A stretch of DNA of 64,000 bases from Deltaproteobacteria bacterium. Its GTDB lineage: Bacteria > Myxococcota_A > UBA9160 > UBA4427. Location: NCBI GenBank assembly GCA_002691205.1, contig NZHD01000061.1, forward strand, positions 31,696 to 95,695, in the 5' to 3' direction. This document shows positions 7,741 to 63,811 of the stretch, one piece after another. The number at the start of each line of letters is the position of its first letter. Within the stretch, counting starts at the first letter, position 1. The notes below the pieces were generated by a model. The model saw nothing but the letters and a program-made list of their open reading frames with translations, ran no database searches and had not been told where the DNA came from. A program made the translations under genes and the position numbers.

Positions 7741-7775
7741 ACCGTTTCCCTGGGACCCAAACCCTTTTGTTCGTC

Positions 7776-9947: not shown

Positions 9948-10046
9948 TGCCAGATTGATCTCCTGGAGGCCCGTTTTTGGGCAGAGGTAGGCTCGCGCTT
10001 TTCTGACAGGCCGGCTCCACAGTCAAGGGGGTGCGTGTGGTCCTAT

Positions 10047-11582: not shown

Positions 11583-11759
11583 GTTGATCTCCGTCGCAGA
11601 GGTAGCTTAGCAGTGGATGGGTCAATGAGAGGAGCGAATTGTCGTTTGGCTTCGTTTTTGGGGCCAAATACGAGCCACTTGCTGTCAGGCTCGGTGGCAT
11701 GCATGATGTCCTAAAGACCTAAGGGTGTCGAGGCATACGTTAAGGAGAAAGGAAGCGAT

Positions 11760-11975
11760 TTGACTGAAGTAGCCGCCGAAATTTCGGGGAGCGTATGGAA
11801 GATCGAGTGCAAGGTGGGAGATTCCGTGGAAGTCGAGCAGGTTCTCCTTATTCTCGAGTCGATGAAGATGGAAATTCCGGTTGAAGCTCCTTGTGCGGGA
11901 ACTGTTCAGGAGATTCGGGTGTCTGAAGGGGAGCACGTTGACGAGGATGCCGTGTTGGTCGTGCTTAAAAAATGA
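11760..11975 (+). CDS. stand-alone biotinyl/lipoyl carrier domain protein (71 aa)
   Basis: ESMKME attachment-lysine motif in a typical hammerhead-domain context (GTVQEIRVSEGEHV). TTG start. Stop overlaps the next ATG (ATGA 11972-11975). Confidence 0.65.
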   Translation: MTEVAAEISGSVWKIECKVGDSVEVEQVLLILESMKMEIPVEAPCAGTVQEIRVSEGEHVDEDAVLVVLKK

Positions 11976-12838: not shown

Positions 12839-12976
12839 TCTTCAGGGCTGATCTGGAAAGCAAGGAATTAGCCTTCATCTTCCTGCAGGAGTGCGTTTGG
12901 CGGGGCATGAGCACCACTTATGGGTTCTTAAGTGGGAGTGATTGGCCATCCCGTGGGCACGTGATACACATCCCTC

Positions 12977-15694
12977 ATGGATCCCGAGGACCAGCCCCCT
13001 TTAAACGCTCTTCATTCCCCAGATGAGGGAGCGGAGAAGCATTCAGACTCTCCGGAGAGAAACGAGCTTGGCTCCAGAGTGAAGCACGCCGACTCGGCCA
13101 TGGTTACGCGTTTCAACCTTTTCTTTCGTGCCTTTGCGCGAAAGTTTTTCAGTCATTTTGATCTGGAAAAGGCAGACGTCAGCCGCCTTTTGGAGTTGGA
13201 GGCGCGCGGCACGGTGATTTACGTGATGCGGTATTCGAGCCGTCTCGATTACTTGCTGTTGAATACTCTTTTTCTTCGAGAGGGCTTGAGGCTTTCTAGT
13301 TTTGCCAATGGGATTCGATTCACGATGTATCGACCCGTTTTTTCGATCCTGCGCAATTTTTTTTCAAGGAAGCGAGGGCAATCTCGGGCGATCGAGCATG
13401 GCGAAGATCAGCGCTGGGTTCGTCGGTGCACCCGCGAGGGGACGTCGTTTTTCTTGTTTCTACGGACACAGCGTTTGCGAACATTTTGGCGCGGCCTTTG
13501 GCGTATGCGGCATCGACAGGATGAGTTAGACCTAATGCAGGAAGTGATCCGTGAGTCGTGGGGACAGACTGAGGAGGTTTTCATTGTCCCGCTGTCTTTG
13601 TTCTGGCGTAAAGGCCCGCGGACATCGAGTCGGTTCTTGAATCTTAATTATGGATCTCTTTCTCGACCCTCAGACGTCGCAAAGGTAACCGCTTTTCTGC
13701 TCACATACCGAAGCCTGTCGGTCAAGATCGGAGAGCCCATCGACTTGGCGAAGTATATTCGTGAGCATCGAGACGACGGCCAAAAGCGGGTGACGAAGAC
13801 CGTTAGGCGCTCCCTATTGATTCATTTTTATCGAGAGGAAAAAGTGGTTGAAGGGCCGACTCTTCGGTCCTCCCAGAGGGTCCTCCGCGAGATTATGTCT
13901 GACAAGGGGGTACAGCGAGCGATACAGGCCCGGGGAGGGCAAAAGCGAAGCTCGCAAAGCAAAGCCGAGAAGGAGGCCGAAAAAGCTTTCAGAGAGATTG
14001 CGGCCAGAATGAACTCGACGCTTTTTGCAGCTCTAGCCATCGTGGTGGGTTGGATTGTGAAAAAGCTTTTTTCAGACGTGGAGACTCGAGGTTTATCTGA
14101 GGTGGCTGAGTACGCAAAGCTTCATCCCATCGTGCTGGTCCCCGCCCATCGATCTTATTTTGACTTTCTTCTTTTGTCTCTTTTGTTTTACAACAGTTAT
14201 CTGGTTCCGCCTCATATTGCGGCTCGAGATAACATGGGCTTTGGACCCTTCGGCTTGATTTTTCGCATGGCCGGTGCGTTTTATTTAAGGCGTTCTTTTG
14301 ATGACCCGCTCTACAAGCAAGTTTTCCGAGCGTATGTGGCCTATCTCGTCCGTGAAGGGTTTACTCAGGAGTTCTTCATCGAGGGAGGCCGGTCGAGGAC
14401 TGGCAAGACCCTGGTCCCGCGTCTCGGAATGCTGAGCTGGAATGTGGATGCCTTTCTTGAGTCCTCCCGCCACGACCTTTTCTTCGTTCCCATCGCCATT
14501 ACCTATGAGCGGCTGGTGGAAGAGAGTGGAATGATTGATGAGCTTGCGGGCGGGAAAAAAAAGCGTGAAAGCACATGGGGTTTATTCAGAGCTCGAAAAT
14601 ATTTGGGCCGACGCTTTGGTTCCGTGCACATTGATTTTGGCGAACCGATTTCTCTCGCGGCGAGTTTGGATCACCGTCGTGAGAGTTTTCAGAAAGCCGT
14701 ACGCGACGAGATTAGCGGGATTAGTGAAGAGGATCATGAAGGTCGACTCCAAGCCATCGAGGAGGAAAAACGGCGTTTCGTCAAAGACCTTGGGAATCGA
14801 GTGGTTGAGGCCATAAACTGGAACGCGACTGCCAACGCGACCTCGATTGTCTCGGCGGCTCTGATGGGCGCTCCCCATTCTGGACTCATGCGACCCATTC
14901 TTGTGGAGCGTGTCCAGCAGTTGGTGGACCTTCTGAGCTGGGAGGACGCGCGGGTCACGGCGGCTCTCTGGGCGGATCGCGGCGAATTCGAGGAATCCAT
15001 CGCCTTCATGATTCGAAATGAACTCGTCTGTCTCGTTGACAATTTTGGCCAAGAAATGATCTATTACGAGGAATCTCGAAGGCATGCGCTTGATCTTTAC
15101 CGCAATAGCATCGTTCACTACCTGGCGATTCCGAGTTTCTTGTCACGGTGCCTGTTGCGGGGGGGGACTCTTTTTGAGATTCAGGCCTCAGTCTCGCGGT
15201 GGCTCGATCTCTACTATTCCGAGTTCTTTGTTCCTGGGGAACGCTCCTCGGCTGATGCTTTAGGTGTCTTGATTGGGCATTTCGAGTCCGCGGGGTGGGC
15301 CAAGAATGTGGATGGAGTTTGGTCAGTCTCGGTTCAGGGAATGGAAATTCTCCATTGCCTCGCGGCCCAGACTCAGAATTTCATTGAAATCTATGAGTGC
15401 GTTTTTCACGTAATTTTGGTCAACGAGGGTGAAATCGATCGCGGTCGGGTGCTGAGCGAGTCTCAGGAGGCTCTCATCCATGCGCGCCATTTAGGCAAGG
15501 CGGGCCGGCCTGAAGCGGCGGGAGACACAAGTCAGGGAAATTCCATAGATTGGCTGGTGGCGCAGGGTATTTTGGCGGTGGATTCGGGCTCTAAGGGGGG
15601 GGCTGGGCCAGAAACCTTGTATTCCCAGGGCGATTCTTGGGATCGGCTGGCTGAATTGCATATGCATCTGGCTAAAGAGGCCTCTGCCCTGTAG
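12977..15694 (+). CDS. plsB: glycerol-3-phosphate acyltransferase, PlsB type
   Basis: 905 aa. HRSYFDF (HX4D acyltransferase motif) and [12 protein letters not shown] motif. Confidence 0.9.
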
Positions 15695-15744
15695 GTTTGC
15701 CCGTTCTCGCGCCTCCTTTTTTGGTGCTAGGAGATAAATATTTT

Positions 15745-16131
15745 ATGGACCCAATCGATCTGCTCGATTTTGACAAATCCGGGGGTCTCGTGACGGCGAT
15801 TGCTCAGGACGCGAAGACCGGCGAAATCTTAATGGTGGCGAACATGAATCCAGAGGCGTTTCTACGAAGTATGGAAACGGGAGAAGTGGTCTACTGGAGT
15901 CGAAGTCGGAAGAAGCTCTGGCACAAAGGTGAGGAGAGTGGCAACGTTCAGCGCATTAAAGAAGTTTTCATCGACTGCGATGGGGACGTTGTTATGTTGA
16001 AGGTCGAGCAGGTAGGTGATGCGGCATGTCACACTGGTCGGCGAAGTTGTTTCTACCGTCGGCTTGATGGAGCTGAAGTCGAAGATGTGGGCGTGATGGT
16101 TTTTGATCCGAAAGAGGTGTACGGAAAATGA
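15745..16131 (+). CDS. hisI: phosphoribosyl-AMP cyclohydrolase (monofunctional, no HisE domain)
   Basis: Motifs [17 protein letters not shown] and DCDGD..ACHTG. ATG 15745 with AGGAG upstream is preferred over the TTG at 15697. ATGA overlap with hisG. Confidence 0.9.
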
Positions 16132-17006
16132 GTGAAGGGCCAAAGCTGCGGCTTGCTCTGCCTAAGGGCAGTCTCCAGGACACGACCATCGAGGTCTTCC
16201 GGCGAGCGGGCTATTCAATTCGTGTGACAAGTCGATCGTATTACCCCTCGATTGATGACCCTGATATCGAGTGTATTTTGATTCGTCCGCAAGAAATGGC
16301 GAGGTATATTGAACAGGGCGTGATGGATTGCGGAATCACGGGACTTGACTGGGTTCTTGAAAGCGGAGCCGATGTTCAAGAACTCGCTGATTTGAAAGCG
16401 CCCCTACCGAATTATGGTTCCGTGCGCTGGATCCTAGCGGTGAAAGATCACTCGCCGTTTCAGTCTCCAAAGGACCTAGAGGGAAAGCGGATTGCGACTG
16501 AAGTCATGGGGCTGACCAAGCGGTATCTGGCCGATCAAGGTTTTACCGCTCAGCTGGAATTTTCTTGGGGAGCGACTGAGGTCAAGCCTCCCATCTTGGC
16601 GGATGCCATCGTCGATGTCACGGAGACGGGTTCAAGCTTGCGGGCCAATCAACTTCGCGTGATCGATACGCTGCTTGAGAGTACCCCGCGTTTTGTTGCG
16701 AATCATGCGGCTTGTGAAGACCCTTGGAAGCGAGCCAAGATGGATCGGATGCTGATGCTCATGCGAGGAGCCATCGCGGCGACGACTCGTGTGGGACTGT
16801 CTATGAATGTGCCTCGTGAGCGCTTAGACGCTGTGCTTAAGCTTCTGCCGCCAGGTGCGCCAACCCTGTCTCCGTTGGCGGATGAGGCTTGGGTGGATGT
16901 TTTCGTGATTATCGACGAAGTGCGTGTTCGCGAGATTGTTCCCTCTCTTCATGAAGCCGGCGCACGAGTTCTGATCGAAACAGCGCTCAGTAAGATCATC
17001 GACTGA
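16128..17006 (+). CDS. hisG: ATP phosphoribosyltransferase, long form with C-terminal regulatory domain
   Basis: 292 aa. [11 protein letters not shown]-terminus, DLTETGSSL-like [13 protein letters not shown], and a HisG_C-like tail. Confidence 0.9.
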
Positions 17007-17009
17007 CGG

Positions 17010-17597
17010 GTGAGTCGGCTTAGAAACCTGGCAGCGCTTCCCTACGACTATTTGAGCACTTTTTACTGGGGGCTCTTTTCTCCTCGCTTGACAGAGGACA
17101 GCCCCCTTGTTGTCCATCAGGCGGTGGTTTTGAATGAGGGGGCCGAAGGGCTTGAGATTTTACTCTCTGTGCGCAGTGATGTACGAGGCTGGGAATTGCC
17201 CGGGGGCCGAGTTGAAGATGGAGAGGACCCCCTAGACGGTCTGGTTCGAGAAGTCGAGGAAGAGACAGGCTTCTGGGTCGAAGCGGACCGACATGTGGGC
17301 GATTACGTCCGAACTGGCTTTCGGCCCCACACCGCTCGAGTGTATCTCTGCCATGTGATCGGGGGGCAGAGGCGGCTCAGTTCCGAGACCTTAGATGTGG
17401 GGTGGTTCGATACGACTCGATTGCCGAGGATGCTCTTGCCTTGGTACCGGCAGCCGATTGCGGATGGGCTGTCCCAGGGCGAACAAGTCCATCGGCGTTT
17501 GGAGCATCAGGGTCTGCAATCGATTTATTCGGCGGTGGCGATTGATTTTCGGATGCGGTGGTCTGGCCAGGGGGTGACGCCGGGGAGACGGTCTTGA
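17010..17597 (+). CDS. NUDIX hydrolase
   Basis: Complete Nudix box GGRVEDGEDPLDGLVREVEEETGF. GTG start 3 nt after the hisG stop. Confidence 0.8.
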   Translation: MSRLRNLAALPYDYLSTFYWGLFSPRLTEDSPLVVHQAVVLNEGAEGLEILLSVRSDVRGWELPGGRVEDGEDPLDGLVREVEEETGFWVEADRHVGDYVRTGFRPHTARVYLCHVIGGQRRLSSETLDVGWFDTTRLPRMLLPWYRQPIADGLSQGEQVHRRLEHQGLQSIYSAVAIDFRMRWSGQGVTPGRRS

Positions 17598-19066
17598 AGG
17601 TCGCACTGAGTTTTATTTTATTGGCTGTGTTGACGGGGCTCGGAATCCTGGTCTTCGGGGCGCTGAGTCTGCGGTCTTTGCCCGAGACAGAGAGGTCTCC
17701 CGTGCCCCCTCGATTCGACTCGGTTGAAATGTTAGAAAGGTTTCGAGATGGATTGCGAATTCCGACTATTTCTCAGCAACCCGGCCAGGCGACGAACGGG
17801 GCGGCCTTCTTGGCTTTCCGTGCTCTTCTGGAGCGCTCCTTTCCAAGAGTTCATGCTGAGTTAGAAAAAGAACTGATTTCGAACCATACCTTGGTCTTTA
17901 AATGGTTAGGTCAGGTGCCATCGGGTCCAGCCACGGTTTTGCTGGCGCATCAGGATGTCGTTCCCGTAGACGGCGAAAATGAGGATCAGTGGACTCACCC
18001 TCCATTCGCCGCTCAGATCGATGACGGATATGTGTGGGCTCGGGGCGCATTGGACGATAAGTTGGGATTATTTGCCATCCTCGAGGCCGTTGAAATTCTC
18101 ATTCAGGAGGGTTTTGTGCCCCAGCGAACCCTTTATCTCGTATTTGGTCATGATGAAGAACTGGGCGGGGCTCATGGAGCTTCGGAGGTTGCGCGACTCT
18201 TCGTTGAGCGAGACATCTCTCTAGGCCTTGTCCTAGACGAGGGAGGGGCTTTGACTGAGGGCCAGGTGCCCGGAGTGGACCAGCCAGTAGCCCTCGTGGG
18301 TGCGGCTGAGAAGGGTTACTTGACTGCTTTGCTGGAAGTGAAAAGTTTGGGGGGGCATTCATCGGCGCCGCCGGCGGAGACCGCAATCGGCATTTTGGCA
18401 AAGGCGATTAGCCGTCTTGAAGAGACGCCTTTTGAAGCTCATCTCGACGAGGTGGGGCGCGCTTTCTTTGAAAGAGGCATTGGTCCTTCAAGTACCTTTG
18501 GTATGCAGCTGGTGTACGGCAACCTATGGTTTTTTGAACCCATTTTGTTGAAGGTCCTCGAGTCCAACCCGACGACAGCCGCCATGGTCCGGACGACGGT
18601 TGCGCCGACCATGATGAAAGCGGGAACGAAAGAGAACGTTTTGCCGACACAGGCGATGGCGTTGGTTAATTTTCGAATTTTTCCGGGTGAAACCGAAGAA
18701 AGCGTGCTTGAAGAGGCCCGTCGTATCGTGGCCGATCCACGGGTTGCTCTGAGAGCTCTTGCGGCGGGGCGAGCACCGTCACCTGCGTCTTCGCTTGACT
18801 CCCAGGCGTGGCGGACTCTTGAGCGCACCATCTACGAGTTATTCCCCGAAGCCATCGTGGCCCCTTATTTGGTTCTCGGTGGGACCGACTCTCGTTATTT
18901 CCGTTCGCGATGTGATTGTGTGTATCGGTTCTTACCGGTACGACTCGGCGCTGACAGCATGAGTTTGATCCACGGGACGAATGAGCGAGTCGCCGCAACA
19001 AGTCTGGTTGAGGCGGCGCATTTCTACCATCAGCTCATCCAAAATGCTGACTCGGCCGCCTTCTAG
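17558..19066 (+). CDS. M20-family metallopeptidase (carboxypeptidase/dipeptidase-like), N-terminal membrane anchor
   Basis: M20 motifs LLAHQDVVP, GALDDK, and HDEELGG. The start is uncertain. A TTG at 17594 overlaps the NUDIX stop (TTGA) and would give an N-terminal TM helix KVALSFILLAVLTGLGILVFG. Confidence 0.8.
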   Translation: MVWPGGDAGETVLKVALSFILLAVLTGLGILVFGALSLRSLPETERSPVPPRFDSVEMLERFRDGLRIPTISQQPGQATNGAAFLAFRALLERSFPRVHAELEKELISNHTLVFKWLGQVPSGPATVLLAHQDVVPVDGENEDQWTHPPFAAQIDDGYVWARGALDDKLGLFAILEAVEILIQEGFVPQRTLYLVFGHDEELGGAHGASEVARLFVERDISLGLVLDEGGALTEGQVPGVDQPVALVGAAEKGYLTALLEVKSLGGHSSAPPAETAIGILAKAISRLEETPFEAHLDEVGRAFFERGIGPSSTFGMQLVYGNLWFFEPILLKVLESNPTTAAMVRTTVAPTMMKAGTKENVLPTQAMALVNFRIFPGETEESVLEEARRIVADPRVALRALAAGRAPSPASSLDSQAWRTLERTIYELFPEAIVAPYLVLGGTDSRYFRSRCDCVYRFLPVRLGADSMSLIHGTNERVAATSLVEAAHFYHQLIQNADSAAF

Positions 19067-44322: not shown

Positions 44323-45264
44323 ATGAAAACAAAAAGCGAAATGGCTTCGCCACTCGTTCACATTGGATTTCCGAAGGCTGGCTCTACTTTTTTACAAAAA
44401 AGAGTCTTTATTGAGAGCAACGGTTTTCATGCCCCTTGGTCAATTTCTTCGGCTGACGCTGTAGAAGCCTTCATCATATCCGATGGCTACACCTTTGCAC
44501 CTGAGCAGGCCTTGTCTCTCTTTAAAAGTGGGATGGAGGAGGCGGAGCAGAAAGGGCTTAGGGCGGTGATCTCCCATGAATATCTTACGGGCAACGCATT
44601 CAATCGAGACAGGGAGTACTACGGGTATGAAGTAAGCGATCGTATCTTGCGGACCTTTCCAGACGCTAAAATTTTGCTGCTCGTGAGAGAGCAGGTGTCC
44701 ATGATCCTTTCAACATACCAGCAGTACGTAGTGCAGGGGGGGTGGTATGATCTGAGTAAGTACTTGGGAGAAGGCCCTCGTCGTCCCGGATTTGCGTCAC
44801 AGTTTAATAGAGACTTCCTCAGATACGATCACGTGATTGATCGATATCAAAGTCTTTTTGGGAAGAATTCTGTTTTGGTACTGCCGCTTGAGTTGCTGAG
44901 TAAGAACTCTGCCGAATTTTTAAAAAGATTGAGCGAATTCTCCGGAGTGGTTCCGATTGCCTCAAATGTTAATCAGGTAGAGAACGCCGCATCCAGTGCG
45001 TTCACCGTAGAGCTACGACGAATCTACAATCGATTCGTAGACACTTATCAGGATCCCTTTGTAAATTCGTACAGAATTAGGAACCGGGTTGCTGGAAAAA
45101 TAAGAAAGGGATCGGAGCGGTTCGTGCCCAGAGAATGGCAAGAACGAAAAGCCAAAGCCAATCACGAAGAAGTTGTTCGGGTCATTGGCGACTACTACTC
45201 TCGCGGAAACAGTCTGGCTTCAGAAAAAATAGGCATAGATTTAAAATCTTTTGGATACCAATGA
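44323..45264 (+). CDS. sulfotransferase-family protein
   Basis: 5'-PSB-like HIGFPKAGSTFL and 3'-PB-like LLLVREQVSMILSTYQQ. Visibly AT-richer than its neighbours. Confidence 0.65.
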   Translation: MKTKSEMASPLVHIGFPKAGSTFLQKRVFIESNGFHAPWSISSADAVEAFIISDGYTFAPEQALSLFKSGMEEAEQKGLRAVISHEYLTGNAFNRDREYYGYEVSDRILRTFPDAKILLLVREQVSMILSTYQQYVVQGGWYDLSKYLGEGPRRPGFASQFNRDFLRYDHVIDRYQSLFGKNSVLVLPLELLSKNSAEFLKRLSEFSGVVPIASNVNQVENAASSAFTVELRRIYNRFVDTYQDPFVNSYRIRNRVAGKIRKGSERFVPREWQERKAKANHEEVVRVIGDYYSRGNSLASEKIGIDLKSFGYQ

Positions 45265-45521
45265 AAACGGGGCGTGCACTCATTTCCTGTGGCGATCTGA
45301 ATTTTTAGAGGAATTGACGGCGTCGCAGTCCCGCACGGAGCAGGCCGTTTTGTAGACGTAGTCCTGAAGCTCCGTAGCGCAGCGGTCTGTTGATTCGCAG
45401 ATGAACCACAAGTGATAAAGCCAAATTCCCTTCACAACCGCTAGTGCCTTGTGGCTTGTCCCGGTCGTGAGGAGACTTATCTTCCATCGACGGAGGTTGT
45501 TAGGTCATCATCTCGAGGTGG

Positions 45522-46133
45522 CTAAGGACGCTTTAGTTTGCCCTGAAAGAAATGCGCTTGCCGCATGCGCTTGAGTTCTGGCTCAAGGTTGCGATCAAAG
45601 GCCCCTTCGCGCTGTTCGATAAGGTGTCGCCAAGGCATGGCGAGTGTATCCGCTTCCCAGAAGCGGACGACATCTTCAACTTTGGCGACGACCTTGGCGG
45701 GGTTTCCAGCCACCACGCTGCCCGCCGGAACGCTTGAACGGACCAAGGAGCCAGCCCCGACCACAGAGCCCTCTCCGATGGTGGTGCTGCCTAAGATGAT
45801 CGCGTCCTCTCCCACGAAAACATCGTCCTCAATGATAATCGGACCGATGCGATCGATGGATACGTTGTGGCGGCGGTTGATCGTTTGGGCCGCGCCATCA
45901 TGGCAAATCAAGGTACAGCTTCCAAGGCAGACTCGGTCGCCTATCCATGTGTATTCCGGTTCGATAATCTTGGTCGAGGGTAAGATCGAGCAGTCCTTGC
46001 CCAAGTGATAGAGGTCGGTCGTCGCGCGGAGATGCTCGGCCCACTCGAAGCCGTTCGCTCCGCCGAAGCGCTTGTAGAGCGCTCTCCCAAGCCTACCGCG
46101 GTGCGAGAAGCGACGGGATAGGCGACGGATCAA
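45522..46133 (-). CDS. hexapeptide-repeat (LbH) acyl/acetyltransferase
   Basis: Hexapeptide repeats IIIEDDVFVGEDAIILGSTTIGEGSVVGAGSLVRSSVPAGSVVAGNPAKVV. Confidence 0.8.
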   Translation of the reverse strand: MIRRLSRRFSHRGRLGRALYKRFGGANGFEWAEHLRATTDLYHLGKDCSILPSTKIIEPEYTWIGDRVCLGSCTLICHDGAAQTINRRHNVSIDRIGPIIIEDDVFVGEDAIILGSTTIGEGSVVGAGSLVRSSVPAGSVVAGNPAKVVAKVEDVVRFWEADTLAMPWRHLIEQREGAFDRNLEPELKRMRQAHFFQGKLKRP

Positions 46134-46384
46134 TGGGTGGCCTCCACTCTTGCAGAAAGCAGGTCTAATAGTATCCCCACATTTCCATCGCCTTGGCGCA
46201 TTTCACTCAATTCGGCTGCGGGAAACTTTACCGAAAAATGTTTTTCGACGGCCACGATGAGATTGATTTGCGCCATGGAGTCCCAACCTTCGACGTCGGT
46301 TGCGGTGGTTGCACGATCGATGCACAAGTCGTCCGCGTCAAATACCTCACGAAACACGCTCTGCAGTTCAACTTCAATGTCCAA
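46130..46384 (-). CDS. acyl carrier protein
   Basis: 84 aa. Phosphopantetheine site VEGWDSMAQINLIVAVE. Overlaps both neighbouring genes. Confidence 0.8.
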   Translation of the reverse strand: MDIEVELQSVFREVFDADDLCIDRATTATDVEGWDSMAQINLIVAVEKHFSVKFPAAELSEMRQGDGNVGILLDLLSARVEATH

Positions 46385-48323
46385 CGATTCGGACCTCCTG
46401 GATCTGATTTGGCTTTGGAGTCAAAGGGGCCGTCAGAGACAGTTCCCAGCGGGTCACCCCAGGCTCATTCTCGCCGCGAGCTTCGAAACCAAGGTTTTCG
46501 TAATGCTGCGACACCATACCATTTTTTTCAGTAGGGCGATATTCTCCAAGCAAACGGGTCAGACCGCGTTCCGTGGCCACTCGAACCAGATCATTTAGGA
46601 CGAAGTCTTCGACGCCGCGCTTCATGACCCTGCAACTCATCAACCAGGTATCGATGAGCATAGAGTCATCCTCGATCCGGGCTAATACCACGCTGATCAG
46701 GCCACTGTCTCCGAAGCGATCGCTGAGTGATACGGTGCGCGTGAACCAGTGTGGATCCTTAGACAGCGCACTTAGCTCGGCGGCCGAGTAGCGGCGGGTT
46801 GTGAGGTTGAATTGGTTTGAGCGGTTGATAAGCTGAGCGCAGCGCTCGAGGTTCATTGGCTGAACGTGGTCGAGAGTCGCGACGAGCTCCAGTGATTTTA
46901 GAAATCCGTTGAGGTCGCTGGCGCTGGTTTCGAGGGCGCGCCGAGCGTCCGAGGCTTGATAAAACTCGGTACGCTTGAGGTCTTCCGGGCTGAGCGATAC
47001 AGCTTGGAAATAACGATGCCTATCTACATCGCGGATATAGTTCGCCGGATCTTTATCCATTTCAGGCACGGCCACTTCGGGGCACAGTTGGCGTACGATG
47101 GCTCGCTCCACAGGGTTATCGTCCACGAAAACAAGGGAGTTCAAACCAATGTTCAGCTGCGCCGCGATACGGCTCATGTTTGTCGCCTTATCATCCCAGT
47201 TGGCCATGAAGCACGAAATGTCGTCCAGGCGCAGCACCATCTCGGTGTGCTTCTCGAAGACCTCCTTCGCAATCGACTCAGTGTTTTTGCTGCACACCGC
47301 GAGGAGCACACCGCGCTCACGCAATGCCCTCGCGTAACGTTGGAACGCAATGAAGGCTTCACCTTCTGGCTCACCTTGGCCCAACTGAATGCCGCCCAGG
47401 CCATCGTCGCCGATGACGCCGCCCCACAGAGTGTTATCCAGATCGAGCACTAGGCACTTGCGCGAATGGCCGAGTTGCGCGAGCACGAGCGATGCCAAGC
47501 TGTGCGCATACTCGGTGAGACACTCCGGTGCACAGGGTAGTTTGGCTTGATTGTAAAATCGTTCGTCGTGCCATTCCCAGCGGCCGACGTTCGCCGCGAG
47601 TGAATCCACGTCGTGCACGGTGACGTTGGGTCCAGCCGCATCCTGCAGTCCGTCGTTGACGCGGGCGAGATAACGCCCAAAGCCAGCGGCATGGCGTGCA
47701 TCGTGGTTTCCCAGTGGTCTGGCTGGAGGCAGAGCGAAGTTGCATTGAATGATCTGGCAACCGAGACGCTCATTTGCGATGCGCCAAAGTTCCTGCCAAT
47801 CCCCAACCTCCGCCTGGACCTTCTCTGCGACCAGCTCCGGTGAATCCAAAAGGCTAGGTACGTGTCCTGCATCGCGCCAGGTTCCTGTGATGATCAAAAA
47901 GTCTGGAGCGAATCGATACAGCTCCGAATCGGGGTCGAGGACCTCCTGCCGCCATGTGCCGTAGTCTGACTGATAGACGATGGGAGCGACTTGACCGGCG
48001 CTTAAGTACAACTCGACGAGGCCGGCGAGGGGAGCCGTGGTGTACCCCCCAAGGATGGCGAGCTTAGGGGCTTGCCCCGTGTGCTTAATTTTGGCACGCA
48101 GTCGCTTGAGCGTGCGCTGCAGAGAAACCGCCGTGGTGTAGTCCAGCCCGGGGATCACGAGACGCGGAAAAGCCGCCTGCAGTGCTCCTGCGTCATCCGT
48201 CTGAAGCTCAGCTTTCATCCAGGCTTGGAGTTCTTTCCAGACGTCTGGATCGCCGCCCCTGCGGTTCGCGAATTGATCGATGAGTTCGGATGCGTCTTTC
48301 ACGGAGAGTCTCCGCCGGGGCAA
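46374..48323 (-). CDS. FkbH-like HAD-IIIC phosphatase/acyl-loading protein with C-terminal GNAT-like domain
   Basis: HAD motif I LVLDLDNTLWGGVIGDDG, VCSKN, and FVDDNP. 649 aa. Confidence 0.8.
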   Translation of the reverse strand: MPRRRLSVKDASELIDQFANRRGGDPDVWKELQAWMKAELQTDDAGALQAAFPRLVIPGLDYTTAVSLQRTLKRLRAKIKHTGQAPKLAILGGYTTAPLAGLVELYLSAGQVAPIVYQSDYGTWRQEVLDPDSELYRFAPDFLIITGTWRDAGHVPSLLDSPELVAEKVQAEVGDWQELWRIANERLGCQIIQCNFALPPARPLGNHDARHAAGFGRYLARVNDGLQDAAGPNVTVHDVDSLAANVGRWEWHDERFYNQAKLPCAPECLTEYAHSLASLVLAQLGHSRKCLVLDLDNTLWGGVIGDDGLGGIQLGQGEPEGEAFIAFQRYARALRERGVLLAVCSKNTESIAKEVFEKHTEMVLRLDDISCFMANWDDKATNMSRIAAQLNIGLNSLVFVDDNPVERAIVRQLCPEVAVPEMDKDPANYIRDVDRHRYFQAVSLSPEDLKRTEFYQASDARRALETSASDLNGFLKSLELVATLDHVQPMNLERCAQLINRSNQFNLTTRRYSAAELSALSKDPHWFTRTVSLSDRFGDSGLISVVLARIEDDSMLIDTWLMSCRVMKRGVEDFVLNDLVRVATERGLTRLLGEYRPTEKNGMVSQHYENLGFEARGENEPGVTRWELSLTAPLTPKPNQIQEVRIVGH

Positions 48324-56865: not shown

Positions 56866-57621
56866 AGAATTCTAATTACGCTTGCCTAGAAAGCCTGAGT
56901 CCTGCGCGCTGCGAAGTACTTTGGTTCTTGGAAAAGCAGCCTTTATGAATAAACGTTTTAGGAAAACCTGTTTTCTAATTTAAAAACATTATTGAGTCAA
57001 CACGAAAATGTTTAAAATAGAGATGTTGTATCCGTGAGCTCTATTTTGAGACTAAAAAATTGGGACAGGATAAAGCTCTGGGTGCCAATGCTTTGTGTAT
57101 GCAATTGATCGGGTGGAGCGATTTGGGCTCCACGGGCCCAGAGGCCACTGTCCCCGCGGGTAGCGATGCCATGGTTGGAAACATGTCTCGAAAGCGTTGA
57201 GTCCAAATTGGTTTAATGGGTGGCTCGATTTAAAGTTTTCTCCACATCTATACGTTGTGAACTCTGAGGCAAAAGTTTGGTTGCAAGGCGGGAGGAGCGA
57301 GAGGCCGGGCCGACTTTCTCATCTAAAATTCAATAGTTGTCGAAAATTTCAACGGTATGGAAAAGGCCAAAAACAGCAGATTGGAGTCTCGGGAGAAGGC
57401 GTGGATCCGAAGTGTTTGTTGTTCTGCCGGGGGTCATCTGGGATCCATGCATGATCTATGAGTGTCGTGTTTAGAAAGTGGCTCATTGAGATAAAATGTA
57501 TCTTCGTAGTGGCAAATTGATTGAGTGGGTTTAATCGAGCGCCAACTTCGATTCAGTTACGAGAATGTCCGTTGTGAAAGTGGAGTTGATTCGCATCTGA
57601 TCCGAGAAGGTTTTGAGAGAT

Positions 57622-58962
57622 ATGGGGATATACGTCGAATTAGACGCAGCGTCGAAGTGGCCCGAGGAGGTCGCGGCGAGCGTTTTGAGTCAGGGTCAGT
57701 CGAAAACGACTTTGCTGTTGCTGGAAGTCCGAGGCAGAAGTGATGTCGATGCGTTTCTCAAAGCACACAAAGCTGAAGTAGATCAAGCGCTCTCGGTCTA
57801 CGGGGGAGTTTTGTTTAGAGGCTTCGACACCCAAGGCGCTCAAGATCTGATGCGCGTCGCGGACTCAGTCCTCGATGAACCCATGGTTTACCGAGATCGA
57901 GCGAGTCCGCGGTCACAAGTGGAAGGATTTGTATTTACTTCGACGGATGCGGCTTCCCACCTGAATATTCGGATGCATTGCGAAAGCTCTTTTACCCATC
58001 GATGGCCTGGTCGGATTCTATTTCAATGCGTCAAGCCATCGAGGTCGGGTGGGGCGACTCCCATTGCTGACGTTCGAGAAGTCTACAAAAGAATTTCCGA
58101 ACCTCTTCGTCGTCGTCTTGAAGAATCAGGCATCAGTTATGTACGTCATTTTGGCAGTGGACCTGGAATGGATTTTAGAGACGTATTCCAGGTGAAAGAT
58201 GAGGACGAACTGCGTCGTTACTGCAAGGAAGCTGGTATCCATATTGGGGAAATGCCGGATGGAAAGCTTCGTCTTTGGCAGACGCGGCCTGCACTAGCGG
58301 TTCATCCGAAGACGAACGAAAAAGTTTGGTTCAATCATGCATGCACCCTCCATGTCAGCCTTCTTGAGAGCGGGCTCCGCGATGCCTTGCGGGCTCAGTA
58401 TGGCGAAAGCAGCCTGCCGCATAATACGTATGCGGGCGACGGCAGTCTCTTGAGCGATGGAGAAGTTGAAGAACTTTACGCGGCTTATGAAGCGGAAATA
58501 CTTCGATTTGACTGGCAGGCGGGGGACGTGCTTTTGCTCGATAATATGCTGATGGCTCACGGACGTGACCCCTATGAAGGGAATCGCGAGGTTGTCGTGG
58601 CGATGGGTGACCCTCTTACATGGGATGATGTCACTCATAGCGGTATGCAGGGATTCAGCCCTGATTGTCTCGAATCCATAGACTCAAAAAAAGATGTGGA
58701 GAAAGCTGGTGAAAAGGCGGTCTTCAACTTGAGTGAAGAGGCCTTGCTTCAGATATTACTGGAGATCGTACGGGAGGCCTTAGAACAACCGGAATTAACG
58801 GCGAGTGACGATTTTTTTGAATTCGGAGGTGATTCGGTGATCGCCGCCAAGGTGGTGCAGGAAGTGGAGGAAAAAGTGGGGCTGACGATTCCGCTTGATT
58901 TGTTTTTCGATACTGAATGCATTCGCGATTGGGCTCGAGAACTTACGATGGCTGAGGTTTGA
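57622..58962 (+). CDS. TauD/TfdA-family (SyrP-like) Fe(II)/2OG dioxygenase fused to a C-terminal peptidyl carrier domain
   Basis: GGVLFRGF, MHCESSF (His 57976-57978, Glu 57982-57984), DNMLMAHGRDPY, then FFEFGGDSVIAAK (Ser codon 58834-58836). ATG 57622 is preferred over TTG 57613. Confidence 0.8.
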   Translation: MGIYVELDAASKWPEEVAASVLSQGQSKTTLLLLEVRGRSDVDAFLKAHKAEVDQALSVYGGVLFRGFDTQGAQDLMRVADSVLDEPMVYRDRASPRSQVEGFVFTSTDAASHLNIRMHCESSFTHRWPGRILFQCVKPSRSGGATPIADVREVYKRISEPLRRRLEESGISYVRHFGSGPGMDFRDVFQVKDEDELRRYCKEAGIHIGEMPDGKLRLWQTRPALAVHPKTNEKVWFNHACTLHVSLLESGLRDALRAQYGESSLPHNTYAGDGSLLSDGEVEELYAAYEAEILRFDWQAGDVLLLDNMLMAHGRDPYEGNREVVVAMGDPLTWDDVTHSGMQGFSPDCLESIDSKKDVEKAGEKAVFNLSEEALLQILLEIVREALEQPELTASDDFFEFGGDSVIAAKVVQEVEEKVGLTIPLDLFFDTECIRDWARELTMAEV

Positions 58963-61900
58963 TGCGGGTTCGAGCCTCCTCTGCGCAGCGGCGTTTGTGG
59001 TTTTTAGATCAGTTGCGGCCCGAATCTGCCGCTTATAACAACGCCAATATTCTTCGTATTCGGGGCCCGCTCAATGTTAAACGACTTGAGAGCGCGCTTC
59101 GGGATGTCGCGCAGCGACACGAGCCTTTGCATAGCCGATTTACGGAGCGAGCTGGAGAGCCGGAGATCGAAACGGATCCTGATCTTTTAATCAGCTTATC
59201 TTTTGAAGAGATCGTGGCCGATTTTCCCAGTGGTGAGTCTCTGGCTCATGAACGGGCGAGTGCGTTGGCGTCTGTTCCCTTTGTGCTGGGGGAGGCCCCG
59301 CTGGCTCGTTGGCATTTGCTGCGTTTGGAAGATGAAGAGCATTGGCTCGTCTATGTCGTTCACCATGCTGTTTCCGATCGATGGTCTTTGGGAGTTTGGT
59401 TGCAGGACCTTTCTGCGTTTCTGCAGGGAGATGAACCCGAACCCTTGACGATGACCTACGGTGAGTACGCGGATGCGCAGGAAGAGTCATTTGGTGCGGC
59501 TGAGACAGCGGCTTCGCTTAGGTTCTATCAGGATATGCTCGGGAACGGTCCCTATCAGTTTGATTTTCCCACTGACACTCCTCGCAGGGCACAACGTCGC
59601 GAGCGCGGCCAGACGATTTGTTTTGATCTGACGCCCCATCAGGCGGCGCTCCGTGTCGCCGCAAAGCGTTTGCGTGCCTCGCCTTACATGGTGGCGTTCA
59701 CCGCCTTTCAGGTCTGGGCCGCTCACACGACAGGCGATTGGTCGCCCTTGTTTGCGACATTCGTGGCGGGTCGTGACAATAAGGCGCTTGCGCCTCTCGT
59801 GGGTCTTTTTGTGAACACACTCGCGCTCCGCTTCGAACTTAATGATGACCCGACCTTTGCTGAAGCGGTCAAGCGTACCCGCAAGACTTGGTTGGCCGCG
59901 CAGCCTCACGCAGGTTTGCCTTTTGAAAAACTCGTCGATGGTCTCTCCGCTGGTCGGGACCTTAGTCGAACCCCGATCGCTCAGGTTGCATTCAATTTCC
60001 ATAATGTCCCAGTCCCCCCGCTGACAGCGGGCGAGCTTTGTTTTGAGTTGCTTGAAGTTAAAAGAGAGAGTGCTCGGTATGACCTCACGCTGACTCTCCG
60101 CCCCACGAAGGACGCGCTTATAGGGGAACTTGAATACGATTCAGATCTATTCCACCCTTCAAGTGCAGATCGGTTCGCCGCACATTTTGACTTTCTTCTC
60201 GGAGCGGCTTTGAGTCAGCCCGAGCAGCATGTGCGGTCTTTGCCGATGATTCCTAAGGCTGATTTGTGCCGACCAATTGAGCCCCATCCTGAAAAAGTGG
60301 AGTTGCCTGAAGTCAGTCTGTTGAAGCGCCTCATGGATCTGGCGGATCACCAACCACTCGCGACCGCTGTCCGTTTTGCAGATCGTACACTGACGTATCA
60401 AGAACTCGCCGTGGAGGTGTCCCGGACAGCCGCTTACTATCGTAAAAACGGCGTCTCTGAGGGACAAAGAGTAGGCATTTGCGTTCCTCGATCTGAGAGG
60501 ATGTTGATTACCGTTCTTGCCCTATTTGGATGTGGAGCAGCCTATGTTCCCCTGGATCGCGTACAGCCCCTCGAACGACTTCGCTTAATTGCCGAGGATG
60601 CGGGGCTTGATGCGGTAATTGGGGAAAGTGAAAATGAGAGCTTTGCAAGCGATGTTCCATGGCTTCCAGAGTCACCTCCTGAAGATTTTGAGGGTCCATG
60701 TAGCCTCTATGCTCAGCCTGATCGTGACGCGCTGGCGTATGTCATTTATACCTCTGGATCGACCGGCATTCCAAAGGGTGTGTGTGTGAGCCACGGAAAT
60801 ATGGGCGCGCTTTGGGTTGCTTTGGATGCGCGCTTAGACCCGCCGAGTACTTTTCGTTTGCTCGCGGTCACTACCCTGTCTTTTGATATCTCGGTGCTTG
60901 AGTTGTTTTGGCCTCTTTGGTGCGGGTCTCAGGTTGTCATCGCGGATGAGCAGACGGCTCGCGATGGCCGACTTCTTGCCATGGCGGCCGAACAGGTTGA
61001 CTTTCTACAAGCTACGCCGGCTTCGATGCGAATGTTAATGGAGACAGGATTTGTACCTACGCAGCATCAAACTTTACTGTGCGGTGGTGAAGCCCTTTCC
61101 AGTGAACTCGCCGCTGCGCTAATTGCCGATGGAGCCACCTTGCACAACGTATATGGGCCAACCGAGACGACGGTTTGGTCGAGCAGTTGGCGGGTGCCTC
61201 CGGAAAGCGATTCGGTTTTTCTCGGGACTGCTTTGCCCAACGAGTGGCTGCACGTCATGGACGCTGCTGGGCGGCCAGTGGCACCCGGTGCAAGTGGTGA
61301 ACTTTGGATCGGGGGTGCGGGAGTGGCCTTAGGCTATCACGACCGCCCAGAATTGACAGCGGATCGTTTCGTACCCGATCCGTTTGATCCTTTGCAGCGT
61401 TGCTACCGAACGGGTGATTTGGTCCGTCAGGATTCGAAGGATCAACTTTGTTTCATTGGGCGTACAGACGGGCAGATTAAGTTGCATGGTCATCGTATGG
61501 AATTGGGCGAAATCGAAACTTGTCTAGGAAAAGCGGAGGGAGTCGAGGCTGCGGTGGTACGTGTGCACGGCGACGGGCCGCGGGCTTTTCTTGTGGCGTA
61601 TTATACGGCTCACAAAGGCTCAAGTCTTTGCCCTGATTCTAATGATCTCAGAGTTCATGTAGAACAATCGCTCCCTGCAGCGATGCGACCCACGCAATTT
61701 GTACGTCTCGATTCTTTCCCTCTTACGCCCAGCGGGAAGATTCAGCGTCAAGCATTGGAGCCTCCGGCTCGGGAGTTGAGTCGCTCTGAAGCCTCTCCGC
61801 CGAAAGATGACGTGGAGTCTCGGCTCGCGGCAATATGGAGCGAAGTGTTGTCCATCGGAATGCCTGGCATGGAGGATGATTTTTTTGCTTTGGGCGGAAA

Positions 61901-62804
61901 TTCGCTCTTGGCCGTCCGGATGTTGCATGAGGTCGAGACAATTCTAGGAGTGGAAGTCGACCTAGCGAGTTTCTTTTTAGCCTCTGACCTAAAAGAGTTT
62001 TCAGAAAACGTCAGAAAGGGCGGAGTATCGAATCAGACTGGAGTGATACATTTATCCAAGGGCTCGAACTCCGTTCTTTGGATGTTGCGTGGGCTAAATA
62101 TCTACCGCGAATTCGCTGAAGCTTTGCCCGAGAGTCTGGGATGTGGGGCTATCTATTTGCAAGAAGAGGTTTCAGGACTTCTCGATTCAGAAGTCGAAGC
62201 TGATTCAATAGAGCAAATGGCTGAACGATACGCCGACTTGATACAAGAATCTCAGCCAGAGGGGCCTTATCGACTAGGCGGTCTATCATTCGGTGGCATT
62301 GTCGCATTTGAAACCGCTCGCTGCCTCCAGAAACGTAAAGCTGAGGTGGACTTGGTCGTGCTTTTGGATTCCCTTTTGCCCGGCGCGCGTAAGCGAGCGT
62401 TAGGGGATTGGTTTATGCACCACCTTACTCGGGTGCACAGGCAGGGTTTCCGAAAGACGCTTACAGAAATACGCCTCTTGATTGGTTCACGGTTGGCTTC
62501 TACAGGTGGGACAGATGAAGTCGACATTGAGCAAGATCTGATGGGGGAACGTAGGAGAATGTATGACATTTCGATGTCGACTTATCAGCCGGCGATTTAC
62601 GAAGGAAGGGTTTTGCTTCTCCTGAGTAAAGCGCCGGAAATCAATCCGGGATGGAGGTTTCGGGAGGATTTGGGCTGGGGTGACGTGAAGGCGGATCTTA
62701 CGATCGCAAAGATAGATGCGATGCATGTTGAACTCGTGGAGGCACCGTATGTGGACGAGGTGGTGCGTCATGTTTCGGCTGCGCTCAAGCTGGACCCTCG
62801 CTAG
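58962..62804 (+). CDS. non-ribosomal peptide synthetase, single module C-A-T-TE
   Basis: C domain: SAQRRLWFL and HHAVSD (59361-59378). A domain: YTSGSTGIPKG (from 60747), NVYGPTETT, YRTGD, and GRTDGQIKLHGHRMELGEIE. T domain: LGGNS (Ser 61902-61904). TE domain: GLSFG (Ser 62286-62288). Start ATG 58962 overlaps the upstream TGA. Confidence 0.9.
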   Translation: MRVRASSAQRRLWFLDQLRPESAAYNNANILRIRGPLNVKRLESALRDVAQRHEPLHSRFTERAGEPEIETDPDLLISLSFEEIVADFPSGESLAHERASALASVPFVLGEAPLARWHLLRLEDEEHWLVYVVHHAVSDRWSLGVWLQDLSAFLQGDEPEPLTMTYGEYADAQEESFGAAETAASLRFYQDMLGNGPYQFDFPTDTPRRAQRRERGQTICFDLTPHQAALRVAAKRLRASPYMVAFTAFQVWAAHTTGDWSPLFATFVAGRDNKALAPLVGLFVNTLALRFELNDDPTFAEAVKRTRKTWLAAQPHAGLPFEKLVDGLSAGRDLSRTPIAQVAFNFHNVPVPPLTAGELCFELLEVKRESARYDLTLTLRPTKDALIGELEYDSDLFHPSSADRFAAHFDFLLGAALSQPEQHVRSLPMIPKADLCRPIEPHPEKVELPEVSLLKRLMDLADHQPLATAVRFADRTLTYQELAVEVSRTAAYYRKNGVSEGQRVGICVPRSERMLITVLALFGCGAAYVPLDRVQPLERLRLIAEDAGLDAVIGESENESFASDVPWLPESPPEDFEGPCSLYAQPDRDALAYVIYTSGSTGIPKGVCVSHGNMGALWVALDARLDPPSTFRLLAVTTLSFDISVLELFWPLWCGSQVVIADEQTARDGRLLAMAAEQVDFLQATPASMRMLMETGFVPTQHQTLLCGGEALSSELAAALIADGATLHNVYGPTETTVWSSSWRVPPESDSVFLGTALPNEWLHVMDAAGRPVAPGASGELWIGGAGVALGYHDRPELTADRFVPDPFDPLQRCYRTGDLVRQDSKDQLCFIGRTDGQIKLHGHRMELGEIETCLGKAEGVEAAVVRVHGDGPRAFLVAYYTAHKGSSLCPDSNDLRVHVEQSLPAAMRPTQFVRLDSFPLTPSGKIQRQALEPPARELSRSEASPPKDDVESRLAAIWSEVLSIGMPGMEDDFFALGGNSLLAVRMLHEVETILGVEVDLASFFLASDLKEFSENVRKGGVSNQTGVIHLSKGSNSVLWMLRGLNIYREFAEALPESLGCGAIYLQEEVSGLLDSEVEADSIEQMAERYADLIQESQPEGPYRLGGLSFGGIVAFETARCLQKRKAEVDLVVLLDSLLPGARKRALGDWFMHHLTRVHRQGFRKTLTEIRLLIGSRLASTGGTDEVDIEQDLMGERRRMYDISMSTYQPAIYEGRVLLLLSKAPEINPGWRFREDLGWGDVKADLTIAKIDAMHVELVEAPYVDEVVRHVSAALKLDPR

Positions 62805-62872: not shown

Positions 62873-63811
62873 ATGGTGGCTGATCTTCCAGTAGGGTGCG
62901 ATCTCAAGTTTGGATTCGTGACAGGCTTTGAGGATGAGATCCCGATTCGGACAAAAGCTGACTTGGCGATGAAGTATAGATACGATTCGATTTGGACAGG
63001 TGACCACGTGGTGGTTCCCGTGCCCATGGTGGACTGTTTTCAGCAGCTTGCGCAGTTCGCCGCCTTAACCAGGGATATCCTGATTGGGACTTCGGTTTAC
63101 ATACTCCCCCTCCGCCATCCGATACCGGTCGCCAAACAAATTACGAGTCTCGATCAGCTGTCTGAAGGGCGTTTCATTTTCGGGGCGGGAGTGGGCGGTG
63201 AGTTTCCGGAGGAGTGGGCCGCCTGCGAGATTCCAGTAGAGGAACGCGGGGCTCGAATGTCAGCGGCTTTGCCCTTAGTTCGTTCCCTTGTTCGAGGTCA
63301 GCCGACTCGGGGGGACGGGCATTTCTTTCACTTTCCCGAAACGACTCTGTTGCCTGCATCTTATCGTCCTGAAGGCCCTCCGGTTTGGCTGGGGGGGAGT
63401 GCGGGCGTGGCACTCCGCCGGATTGCTCGGTGGGCCGATGGCTGGGTGGGGTATATGAAAACCCCGGATGAATACGGAGAAGGACTTGAGGTCATCGCCA
63501 CTGAGGCCAAATCGTGCGGGCGGCAATTCGAGTACTTTGATGCAGCGCACCTTCTCTGTCTTCGGATCGATGATTCAAACGAAGCCGCATTCAAAGCGGC
63601 GAAGGAAGACGTGGGCTTTGGGATGGCGATGGATTTGATCGGGGCAACTCGGCAGCATGCAGCGCTTGGTCGTCCGGCCGATGTGGCCGAGCAGATTGAT
63701 CGTTATCGGAGAGCGGGTTTGCGACATGTGATCCTTGAAACGCTGGGACACCAAGACCGAGAGGAGCAGCTGGTCCGTTTTGCTGAAGAAGTCAGACCTT
63801 TGCTCCGCTAA
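62873..63811 (+). CDS. luciferase-like monooxygenase (LLM) class oxidoreductase, probably F420-dependent subgroup
   Basis: LLM TIM-barrel pattern DSIWTGDHV...LDQLSEGRFIFGAGVGGEFPEEW...ERGARM resembles the TIGR03619-like F420 clade. The cofactor assignment is not provable by eye. Confidence 0.7.
   Translation: MVADLPVGCDLKFGFVTGFEDEIPIRTKADLAMKYRYDSIWTGDHVVVPVPMVDCFQQLAQFAALTRDILIGTSVYILPLRHPIPVAKQITSLDQLSEGRFIFGAGVGGEFPEEWAACEIPVEERGARMSAALPLVRSLVRGQPTRGDGHFFHFPETTLLPASYRPEGPPVWLGGSAGVALRRIARWADGWVGYMKTPDEYGEGLEVIATEAKSCGRQFEYFDAAHLLCLRIDDSNEAAFKAAKEDVGFGMAMDLIGATRQHAALGRPADVAEQIDRYRRAGLRHVILETLGHQDREEQLVRFAEEVRPLLR

Follow-up and report, generated by a model that had tools for sequence, protein, structure and literature searches.

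A predicted two-protein nonribosomal peptide synthetase with a carrier-fused TauD-type oxygenase and a single, glycine-type adenylation domain

Introduction

The right end of a 64-kb stretch of DNA from a metagenome-assembled genome (MAG) labelled 'Deltaproteobacteria bacterium' (contig NZHD01000061.1; the whole stretch, positions 1-64000, is called the window here) carries two co-oriented genes that together occupy 5.2 kb. The first encodes a TauD/TfdA-type oxygenase followed by a carrier, or thiolation (T), domain, and the second a nonribosomal peptide synthetase (NRPS) protein with one condensation (C), one adenylation (A), one T and one thioesterase (TE) domain. The locus holds more T than A domains, since two carriers, called T1 (in TauD-T) and T2 (in C-A-T-TE), are accompanied by one A domain, and this A domain is glycine-like by its specificity code and its closest solved relatives. 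The TauD-T and C-A-T-TE pair is a conserved unit that recurs in other metagenomic contexts. A TauD oxygenase integrated into an NRPS and a starter carrier that lacks an A domain are each of a known kind, and the pair is a new variation on them.

Domain architecture of the pair

The features of the two genes are as follows.

57622..58962, + strand: TauD-T gene, start codon ATG at 57622, product of 446 aa (Pfam; gene calls on public contigs)
57742..58602, + strand: TauD/TfdA-family oxygenase domain (PF02668, 1.2e-45, aa 44-330)
58753..58941, + strand: carrier T1, peptidyl-carrier type, FFEFGGDS (PF00550, 5.5e-13, aa 381-443; motif scan)
58962..62804, + strand: C-A-T-TE synthetase gene, 1280 aa (Pfam; gene calls on public contigs; ORF 58959/58962)
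58974..60260, + strand: condensation domain, LCL-like (PF00668, 8.5e-73)
60342..61739, + strand: adenylation domain, code DILQLGVVWK (PF00501, 2.7e-71, with PF13193, AMP-binding_C)
61821..62006, + strand: carrier T2, FFALGGNS (PF00550, 1.8e-09; motif scan)
62100..62777, + strand: thioesterase domain, GLSFG (PF00975, 3e-22; motif scan)

The sizes of 446 and 1280 aa are those assigned by gene callers on identical public contigs; an in-frame TTG lies upstream of the TauD-T ATG, at 57613 (ORF 57613/57622..58962), and the residue numbers of the oxygenase count from this TTG. At the junction, which reads ...GTT TGA TG CGG, the TGA stop of TauD-T and the ATG of the synthetase overlap by one base (TGATG). 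The same two proteins are found on several independent marine contigs, from TARA and other sources, and the identical TauD-T protein is deposited as MAI78977.1.

The oxygenase domain scores 157 bits against PF02668, for which the curated cut-off is 27. Its facial triad is encoded at 57976-57978 (H122), 57982-57984 (E124) and 58558-58560 (H316), and H122-x-E124, the distal H316 and R325 are invariant in an alignment of six TauD-T fusions and are also unchanged in 76 homologues. On the strength of the hidden Markov model match, the triad and the arginine, the domain is assigned to the TauD/TfdA family of Fe(II)/2-oxoglutarate (2OG) dioxygenases. The carrier that follows has its phosphopantetheine serine (GGDS) at 58834-58836, and the AlphaFold2 (AF2) model of the whole protein has a pLDDT of 93.5 and a pTM of 0.91. 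Among solved proteins, the nearest to the oxygenase in sequence are At3g21360 and the sulfoquinovose dioxygenase SqoD, and the nearest in fold (Foldseek), after At3g21360, are PlaO1, AtsK, TauD, ScoE, RdpA/AAD-1 and PvcB; no SyrP-type enzyme that depends on a carrier was among the structures matched in either search. The likeness to SqoD is uninformative about the substrate of the oxygenase.

The second protein has the domain order and the core motifs of a C-A-T-TE termination module (Pfam, NCBIfam, motif scan), the motifs required being HHxxxD, the A3 motif YTSGSTGxPKG, GGxS and GxSxG. The C domain shows the C1 motif SSAQRRLWFL and the active-site sequence HHAVSD at 59361-59378. When ranked against domains in the PDB, it scores 170-210 bits with the C domains of Txo2, Txo1, DhbF C2 and TycC6, against 61-66 bits with the starter domain of SrfA and the DCL domain of SrfA-C, and 46 bits with the TycB DCL domain, so that, judged from these scores and from its C1 motif, it resembles the LCL type that forms peptide bonds. 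A starter-type C domain, which would make T1 unnecessary, was considered and found unsupported, the SrfA starter giving at most 66 bits. The serine of T2 (GGNS) is encoded at 61902-61904 and the nucleophilic serine of the TE domain at 62286-62288.

The A domain reaches 362.8 bits, over the cut-off, with the amino-acid adenylation model TIGR01733 of NCBIfam. Multiple alignments of A domains with GrsA-PheA give the specificity code D-I-L-Q-L-G-V-V-W-K; as an internal check, the GrsA sequence used yielded DAWTIAAICK at the canonical positions. Position 278 is Q in the alignments restricted to A domains and in the register set by the LQATP / TLPP motif, and T in pairwise and whole-protein alignments, owing to a different placement of gaps. 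D235 and K517, both expected of a glycine-type code, are present, and the reference code for glycine is DILQLGLIWK. The closest solved A domains are those of LgrA module 2 (418 bits, 3.5e-124) and DhbF A1, both glycine-activating, together with AB3403, while GrsA gives 241 bits. The A site of AB3403 holds glycine (PMC10510592). The domain is glycine-like, and activation of glycine is predicted from its code and its PDB relatives.

A single adenylation domain in 74 kb

A second loading enzyme was sought in and around the window. With tblastn, neither an NRPS A-domain probe (E up to 1) nor an unrelated probe from a ligase of the acyl-CoA synthetase, NRPS adenylation domain and luciferase (ANL) superfamily (E up to 10) found a further adenylating gene in window 1-64000; the second negative is meaningful because the ANL probe does detect NRPS A domains, at 1e-7 to 1e-12. 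Pfam matches of 20 further window ORFs include no adenylating gene and indicate housekeeping and miscellaneous functions, and no MbtH, Sfp-type phosphopantetheinyl transferase motif or second A3 motif was seen in the motif scan. On the identical public contigs, the 10 kb past the right edge hold genes for a carboxylesterase, a protein of 745 aa with no assigned function, 2OG-FeII_Oxy, DHOR and DUF1214, with no NRPS or adenylating gene by tblastn and no AMP-binding entry in the precomputed Pfam lists. The total span without another adenylating gene is 74 kb, and the possibility of additional modules beyond nt 64000 was rejected because this continuation lacks NRPS domains.

An earlier note on this DNA, made from its letters alone, had described an Fe(II)/2OG oxygenase (H-x-E, distal His) fused to a GGDS carrier, a stop codon overlapping the start of a 1280-aa C-A-T-TE protein, an ordinary LCL-type C domain, a Gly-like specificity code and a single A domain, and it had called TauD-T fusions uncommon. 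The domain searches, the invariant residues, the junction sequence, the computed code, the PDB rankings and the probes described above bear out the structural claims, and the counts given below agree with the remark on rarity. Of the three results that would have told against the note, namely further A domains or modules, a code unlike that for Gly and a C domain with no need of the upstream T, none was obtained. Its interpretation is supported in part, the loading of both carriers by one A domain being plausible.

Recurrence of the pair

The pair recurs in five further metagenomic contexts, in which TauD-T is 41-58% identical to the window protein. One of them is a Limisphaerales MAG (L007/L008/L013), whose TauD-T is 56% and whose synthetase is 46% identical to the window proteins; only the two genes of the pair are common to this locus and the window, and the flanks differ. 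TauD-T is 58% identical and is followed by a C domain in L173, it is 43% identical in L176, where the two genes are convergent on a 330-kb contig, and in L179 the start of a C domain follows the fusion before the contig ends. The remaining copy, L174, has a TauD-T of 41% identity and lies beside an integrase: an rve-family integrase gene (297-818) is found immediately 5' of TauD-T and C-A(Gly)-T-TE, which hints that the pair is mobile as a unit.

The A domain is present in three of the five contexts, and its codes, DILQLGMVWK, DILQLGLLWK and DILQIGLVWK, are all of the glycine type. A second adenylating gene is absent from all five loci, within flanks of 0.3-10 kb and with two of the contigs shorter than 4 kb.

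A rare family of oxygenase-carrier cassettes

TauD-T fusions are rare. TauD is combined with a PP-binding domain in 6 of the 120 best homologues, and it is followed by a carrier at 5 of 80 loci from species-representative genomes and at 2 of 80 loci from metagenomes. When 1.84 billion representatives were searched exhaustively with HMMER, 1097 matches were obtained at E<1e-30, with about 15 fusion clusters among the best 150; ten of the fusions found in this way were confirmed by Pfam. The cassettes take the forms TauD-T, TauD followed by a separate T, A-TauD-T and TauD-T-TE, and their hosts are the 'Deltaproteobacteria' MAG and genomes of Verrucomicrobiota, Cyanobacteria, Acidobacteriota, Rhodothermia and Pseudomonadota.

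Several of these relatives begin without an A domain. In the unicellular cyanobacterium SU2 (L053, NEED01000071.1, 9911-18525), TauD and a separate 122-aa T precede C-A-T-C-A-T-TE in a cluster flanked by tpiA and folP, giving three carriers and two A domains, both with the code DAFFLGVTFK. Two further compact clusters, L012 and L015, likewise have an A-less start. In the former (TARA scaffold_728, 6489-17898), TauD-T is followed by a C-A module and then by a TubC_N-C-A-T-TE module; the A domain of the C-A module appears to be split by separately called methyltransferase and flavin monooxygenase (FMO)-like ORFs, and there is a weak Lant_dehydr_N match upstream.

One relative has an adenylating domain fused ahead of TauD-T, with the oxygenase placed between a loader and its carrier, namely P0143 of Calothrix rhizosoleniae SC01 (L025/L180, FYBH01000398.1), the N-terminus of which is cut by the contig end. 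This domain is nearest to oxalate-CoA ligase, with 268 bits to 5ie0, whereas other ANL classes give at most 134 bits (FadD13, 130). The fusion of an oxalate-CoA-ligase-like domain to TauD-T points to loading with non-amino acids in this carrier lineage, and suggests that small dicarboxylic or C2 acids could be placed on such a carrier.

Relationships of the oxygenase

The survey of oxygenase homologues covered about 160 loci. In the usual layout, a C-like domain is followed by TauD at the end of the protein, and the next protein begins with C-A-T; this is the integrated beta-hydroxylase architecture known from siderophores (PMC8949500, PMC7100376). The A domains that come after the surveyed TauD domains have codes overwhelmingly of the Asp/Asn/Glu/Gln kind, such as DLTKIGHVGK, DLTKIGEVGK, DAKDLGVVDK and DAWQFGL... 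In a bootstrapped neighbour-joining tree, all 14 carrier-followed TauDs fall into one clade (61/100) together with seven stand-alone TauDs that have no NRPS neighbours, and the oxygenases of the window, L173 and the Limisphaerales MAG cluster at 100/100. The tree lends modest support to a separation of the TauD-T oxygenases from the classical Asp/Asn beta-hydroxylase domains.

Assignment of the window oxygenase to the integrated aspartate beta-hydroxylases (I-beta-H-Asp) was considered and rejected, since neither defining feature of context is present: the oxygenase lies at the N-terminus, where no C-like domain precedes it and T follows it, and the adjacent A code, DILQLGVVWK, is for Gly and not Asp-specific.

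Two other observations were made in the survey. At many cyanobacterial loci (L019, L022, L026, L027, L032, L046, L052, L059, L062, L066 and L080, among others), the recurrent code extracted from the A domain after C-TauD is the non-canonical SSRDVAMGIK, in which D235 is missing; it may reflect a substrate other than an alpha-amino acid or an artefact of the alignment. Tandem TauD-TauD arrangements also occur in NRPS clusters, some within one protein of about 675 aa and others encoded by neighbouring genes (P0127 and P0128; loci L021, L045, L058, L069, L085, L088, L117 and L132).

Genes flanking the pair

Two features adjoin the pair.

56866..57621, no strand: intergenic region of 756 bp that separates TauD-T from the divergent MFS/spermidine-synthase-like gene (ORF list, sequence)
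62873..63811, + strand: luciferase-like (F420/FMN class) oxidoreductase gene (PF00296, 1.2e-41)

The intergenic region is presumed to hold the promoter of TauD-T, which would therefore be the first gene of its operon; it contains a single sigma-70-like match, at 57470-57497, which is not above chance level. On its far side, the window encodes a 951-aa fused protein resembling a major facilitator superfamily (MFS) transporter and spermidine synthase (NF037959, PF01564; 54010-56865, - strand), divergent from the pair. As a partner, suggested by a spergualin-like alpha-hydroxyglycine-polyamine product, this gene was rejected because it lies on the opposite strand and is missing at the other pair loci.

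The luciferase-like gene starts 68 bp 3' of the synthetase gene and may be co-transcribed with the pair. Its product scores 155 bits against TIGR03619, under the NCBIfam cut-off of 166.9, and matches TIGR04020, a natural-product family of luciferase-like monooxygenases (LLMs), weakly. The idea of a third component was prompted by the MOx domain of MtaG, which oxidises glycine. As a conserved third component, the gene was rejected because the LLMs encoded close to the Limisphaerales pair are not its orthologues, the identity to one of them being 28%, and since it is not a conserved partner, its membership in the system is doubtful. Luciferase-like genes do lie near TauD-T in three unrelated loci (window 62873-63811; L008 8357-12485; L024 5901-6938), which could be coincidence. 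Farther away, at 44323-48323, the window groups genes for a sulfotransferase-like protein (+), a hexapeptide-repeat transferase (-) and a 648-aa FkbH_N protein (-), which may be glycan- or lipid-modification genes with no relation to the NRPS.

How T1 may be charged

We propose that the locus would act as a self-contained two-protein NRPS. In this scheme, TauD-T would be an initiation carrier that lacks its own A domain and has an Fe(II)/2OG oxygenase built in, and the second protein would be one complete termination module, C-A(Gly)-T-TE. The Gly-specific A domain would charge T2 in cis and, in the likeliest case, T1 in trans as well; the fused oxygenase would oxidise the group tethered to T1; the LCL-type C domain would pass the T1 acyl group to Gly-S-T2; and the TE domain would free a very small X-Gly product. 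We infer the role of T1 as donor for the C domain from the gene order, the translational coupling and the type of C domain, whereas action of the oxygenase on the T1-bound substrate is suggested by the fusion itself and by the existence of A-TauD-T relatives.

Because the pair recurs without a second A domain, charging of T1 in trans by the one Gly A domain is the most economical account. Parsimony and precedent are its basis, and the A-less starts of L053, L012 and L015 favour loading of a starter carrier by an A domain within the cluster. We rank it first, while giving it somewhat less than an even chance, with charging by an unlinked enzyme as a close second. Several points weigh against it. 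The enzyme that charges T1 cannot be read from any sequence feature. Glycine has no beta-carbon, so that, if T1 carries glycine, beta-hydroxylation is impossible. Oxidation of carrier-bound glycine at C-alpha by a TauD-type enzyme is not reported in the searchable literature, and to our knowledge none has been described. Those relatives of the oxygenase that are embedded in NRPS lines precede Asp/Asn/Glu/Gln modules and never Gly. Finally, some members of this carrier lineage stand without any visible loader: for the orphan TauD-T genes L024, L010 and L177, no adenylating gene was found within about 10 kb, and for a TauD-T-TE protein (P0133/L181, ENA ERZ24794647, 10001-12001), encoded among pilMNOPQ, aroQ, efp, accB and a glycosyltransferase gene, no adenylating or condensation gene was found in 10 kb upstream or about 2 kb downstream. 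Charging by an unlinked enzyme is possible for this lineage on account of these orphans.

Such unlinked charging is the nearest rival, and to our minds a realistic one, if rather below an even chance. An A domain or acyl ligase not linked to the pair would then load T1 with another substrate, TauD would hydroxylate that substrate, which could be a beta-hydroxylatable Asp, Asn or Glu residue or a small carboxylic acid, and the product would be an (oxidised X)-Gly. Apart from the orphans, this reading draws on the ties of NRPS-embedded oxygenases to Asp/Asn/Glu/Gln modules (PMC8949500, PMC7100376), on the oxalate-CoA-ligase-like domain upstream of TauD-T in P0143, with its hint of non-amino-acid loading, and on the paradigm of EntF and AB3403, in which the A domain is free-standing (PMC10510592) and which for its part speaks against loading by the synthetase. 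It sits less well with the five other contexts of the pair, in which flanks of 0.3-10 kb hold no second adenylating gene, and with the persistence of an intact pair over 41-58% divergence, once next to an integrase, which suggests a unit that works by itself; the TauD-T oxygenases also stand apart from those associated with Asp/Asn, at a bootstrap of only 61/100.

The oxygenase might instead act downstream, on Gly-S-T2 or X-Gly-S-T2, to give an N-acyl-alpha-hydroxyglycine, with T1 as a donor carrier only. The chemistry would suit such a product, N-acyl-alpha-hydroxyglycines being far more stable than free alpha-hydroxyglycine, and in the known and surveyed lines TauD does sit directly upstream of the module it modifies, as in C-TauD followed by C-A(Asp)-T (PMC7100376). 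Here, however, the oxygenase is joined to T1 and not to a C-like interface domain, the A-TauD-T and TauD-T-TE relatives have no downstream module as a target, and the AF2 model predicts one confident two-domain body (pTM 0.91); we regard this alternative as quite unlikely. Most improbable of all is a pair in decay, left over from a larger NRPS after loss of the first A domain and without any product. A-TauD-T relatives exist, and loss of an A domain is for that reason a plausible origin of the fusion, but the reading frames are intact with all catalytic motifs present, the two-gene architecture and the glycine code are kept across lineages at 37-58% identity, and copies identical to the pair have come from several independent marine samples.

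Possible chemistry on a glycine-loaded carrier

If, on the trans-loading account, T1 carries glycine, the oxidation must be at C-alpha, in the manner of TfdA and TauD with their X-CH2-CO chemistry; to hydroxylate a carbon adjacent to a heteroatom is established chemistry of this family. The donor so formed would be an alpha-hydroxyglycyl or a glyoxylyl group and not a beta-hydroxy amino acid, and a free alpha-hydroxyglycyl thioester is expected to lose ammonia and give the glyoxylyl thioester. The hydroxylated, dipeptide-like product of a SyrP-like enzyme that the earlier note considered fits poorly with glycine as the tethered residue, and the relatives of the oxygenase lie before Asp/Asn/Glu/Gln modules.

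Taken to its end, this chemistry would make the pair a self-sufficient machine for joining two C2 units. The A domain would charge both carriers, the carbinolamine formed by C-alpha oxidation would collapse to a glyoxylyl thioester, with a second turnover leading to an oxalyl thioester instead, and the C domain would join the glyoxylyl or oxalyl unit to a second glycine, for a product of the N-glyoxylyl-glycine or N-oxalyl-glycine type. We hold this full sequence of steps to be unlikely. The Calothrix fusion of an oxalate-CoA-ligase-like domain with TauD-T is a weak hint of C2 dicarbonyl chemistry on such a carrier. If the full sequence holds true, NRPS-associated TauD domains would have a reaction new to them, and alpha-keto-acyl starters a new route of synthesis.

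Comparison with known systems

The siderophore I-beta-H-Asp domains (cupriachelin, taiwachelin, serobactin and PtcB of potashchelin) are likewise TauD/TfdA oxygenases built into an NRPS line, and, as here, they lie just upstream of a protein that starts with C. They are C-terminal, after a C-like domain and before an Asp module, whereas the window oxygenase is N-terminal, with its own T, before a Gly module. SyrP and KtzO/KtzP, set beside the window oxygenase by their descriptions, share its Pfam family and act as hydroxylases of aminoacyl-S-T substrates; in contrast to the carrier-fused enzyme described here, they are free-standing, act on Asp or Glu and have no fused carrier. In the kutzneride system, it is reportedly a separate A domain that loads the target T domain in trans. 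I-beta-H-Asp domains act on a carrier-tethered residue (PMC8949500, PMC7100376).

A precedent for the proposed loading is the AMB synthetase of Pseudomonas aeruginosa, a small NRPS with an A domain that serves two carriers, as proposed here: the A domain of AmbB, specific for Ala, loads its own T and, in trans, T2 of AmbE, and the TauD-type oxygenases AmbC and AmbD tailor a tethered intermediate (PMC4357302). The AMB system has two A and three T domains, separate oxygenases and a tripeptide precursor, against one A, two T and a fused oxygenase in the window, and the C domain of AmbB matches the window C domain weakly (2.6e-17). AB3403 of Acinetobacter baumannii and EntF are C-A-T-TE proteins like the window synthetase, with a separate upstream carrier that donates to the C domain (PMC10510592), and the A domain of AB3403 is a strong match to that of the window (9e-93). 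They rely on a free-standing A domain, whereas no such domain lies within 74 kb of the pair. The halogenase-ACP (acyl carrier protein) fusion of the HctB type, from hectochlorin biosynthesis, can be likened by description to TauD-T, as an Fe/2OG enzyme joined in one protein to the carrier on which its substrate is presented, but it belongs to a different Fe/2OG subfamily. HctB is of the SyrB2-like halogenase subfamily, in which the carboxylate of the triad is missing, and it acts on an acyl chain in a hybrid of polyketide synthase (PKS) and NRPS. As for the TauD-carrier didomain itself, no description was found in the searchable literature.

Significance

The system overturns nothing by itself, but it raises a sharp chemical question. 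The rules by which NRPSs are read assume a cognate loader for each carrier and beta-hydroxy-Asp as the outcome of an integrated TauD domain, and the pair breaks both expectations, with two carriers for one A domain and an oxygenase coupled to a glycine module. As it consists of two proteins encoded in 5.2 kb, complete reconstitution is feasible, which makes it a clean test bed for how an A domain recognises carriers in trans and for the action of a TauD-type enzyme on a substrate lacking a beta-carbon. The survey, in turn, defines a rare family of oxygenase-carrier cassettes, the members of which genome-mining tools would label as generic NRPS genes.

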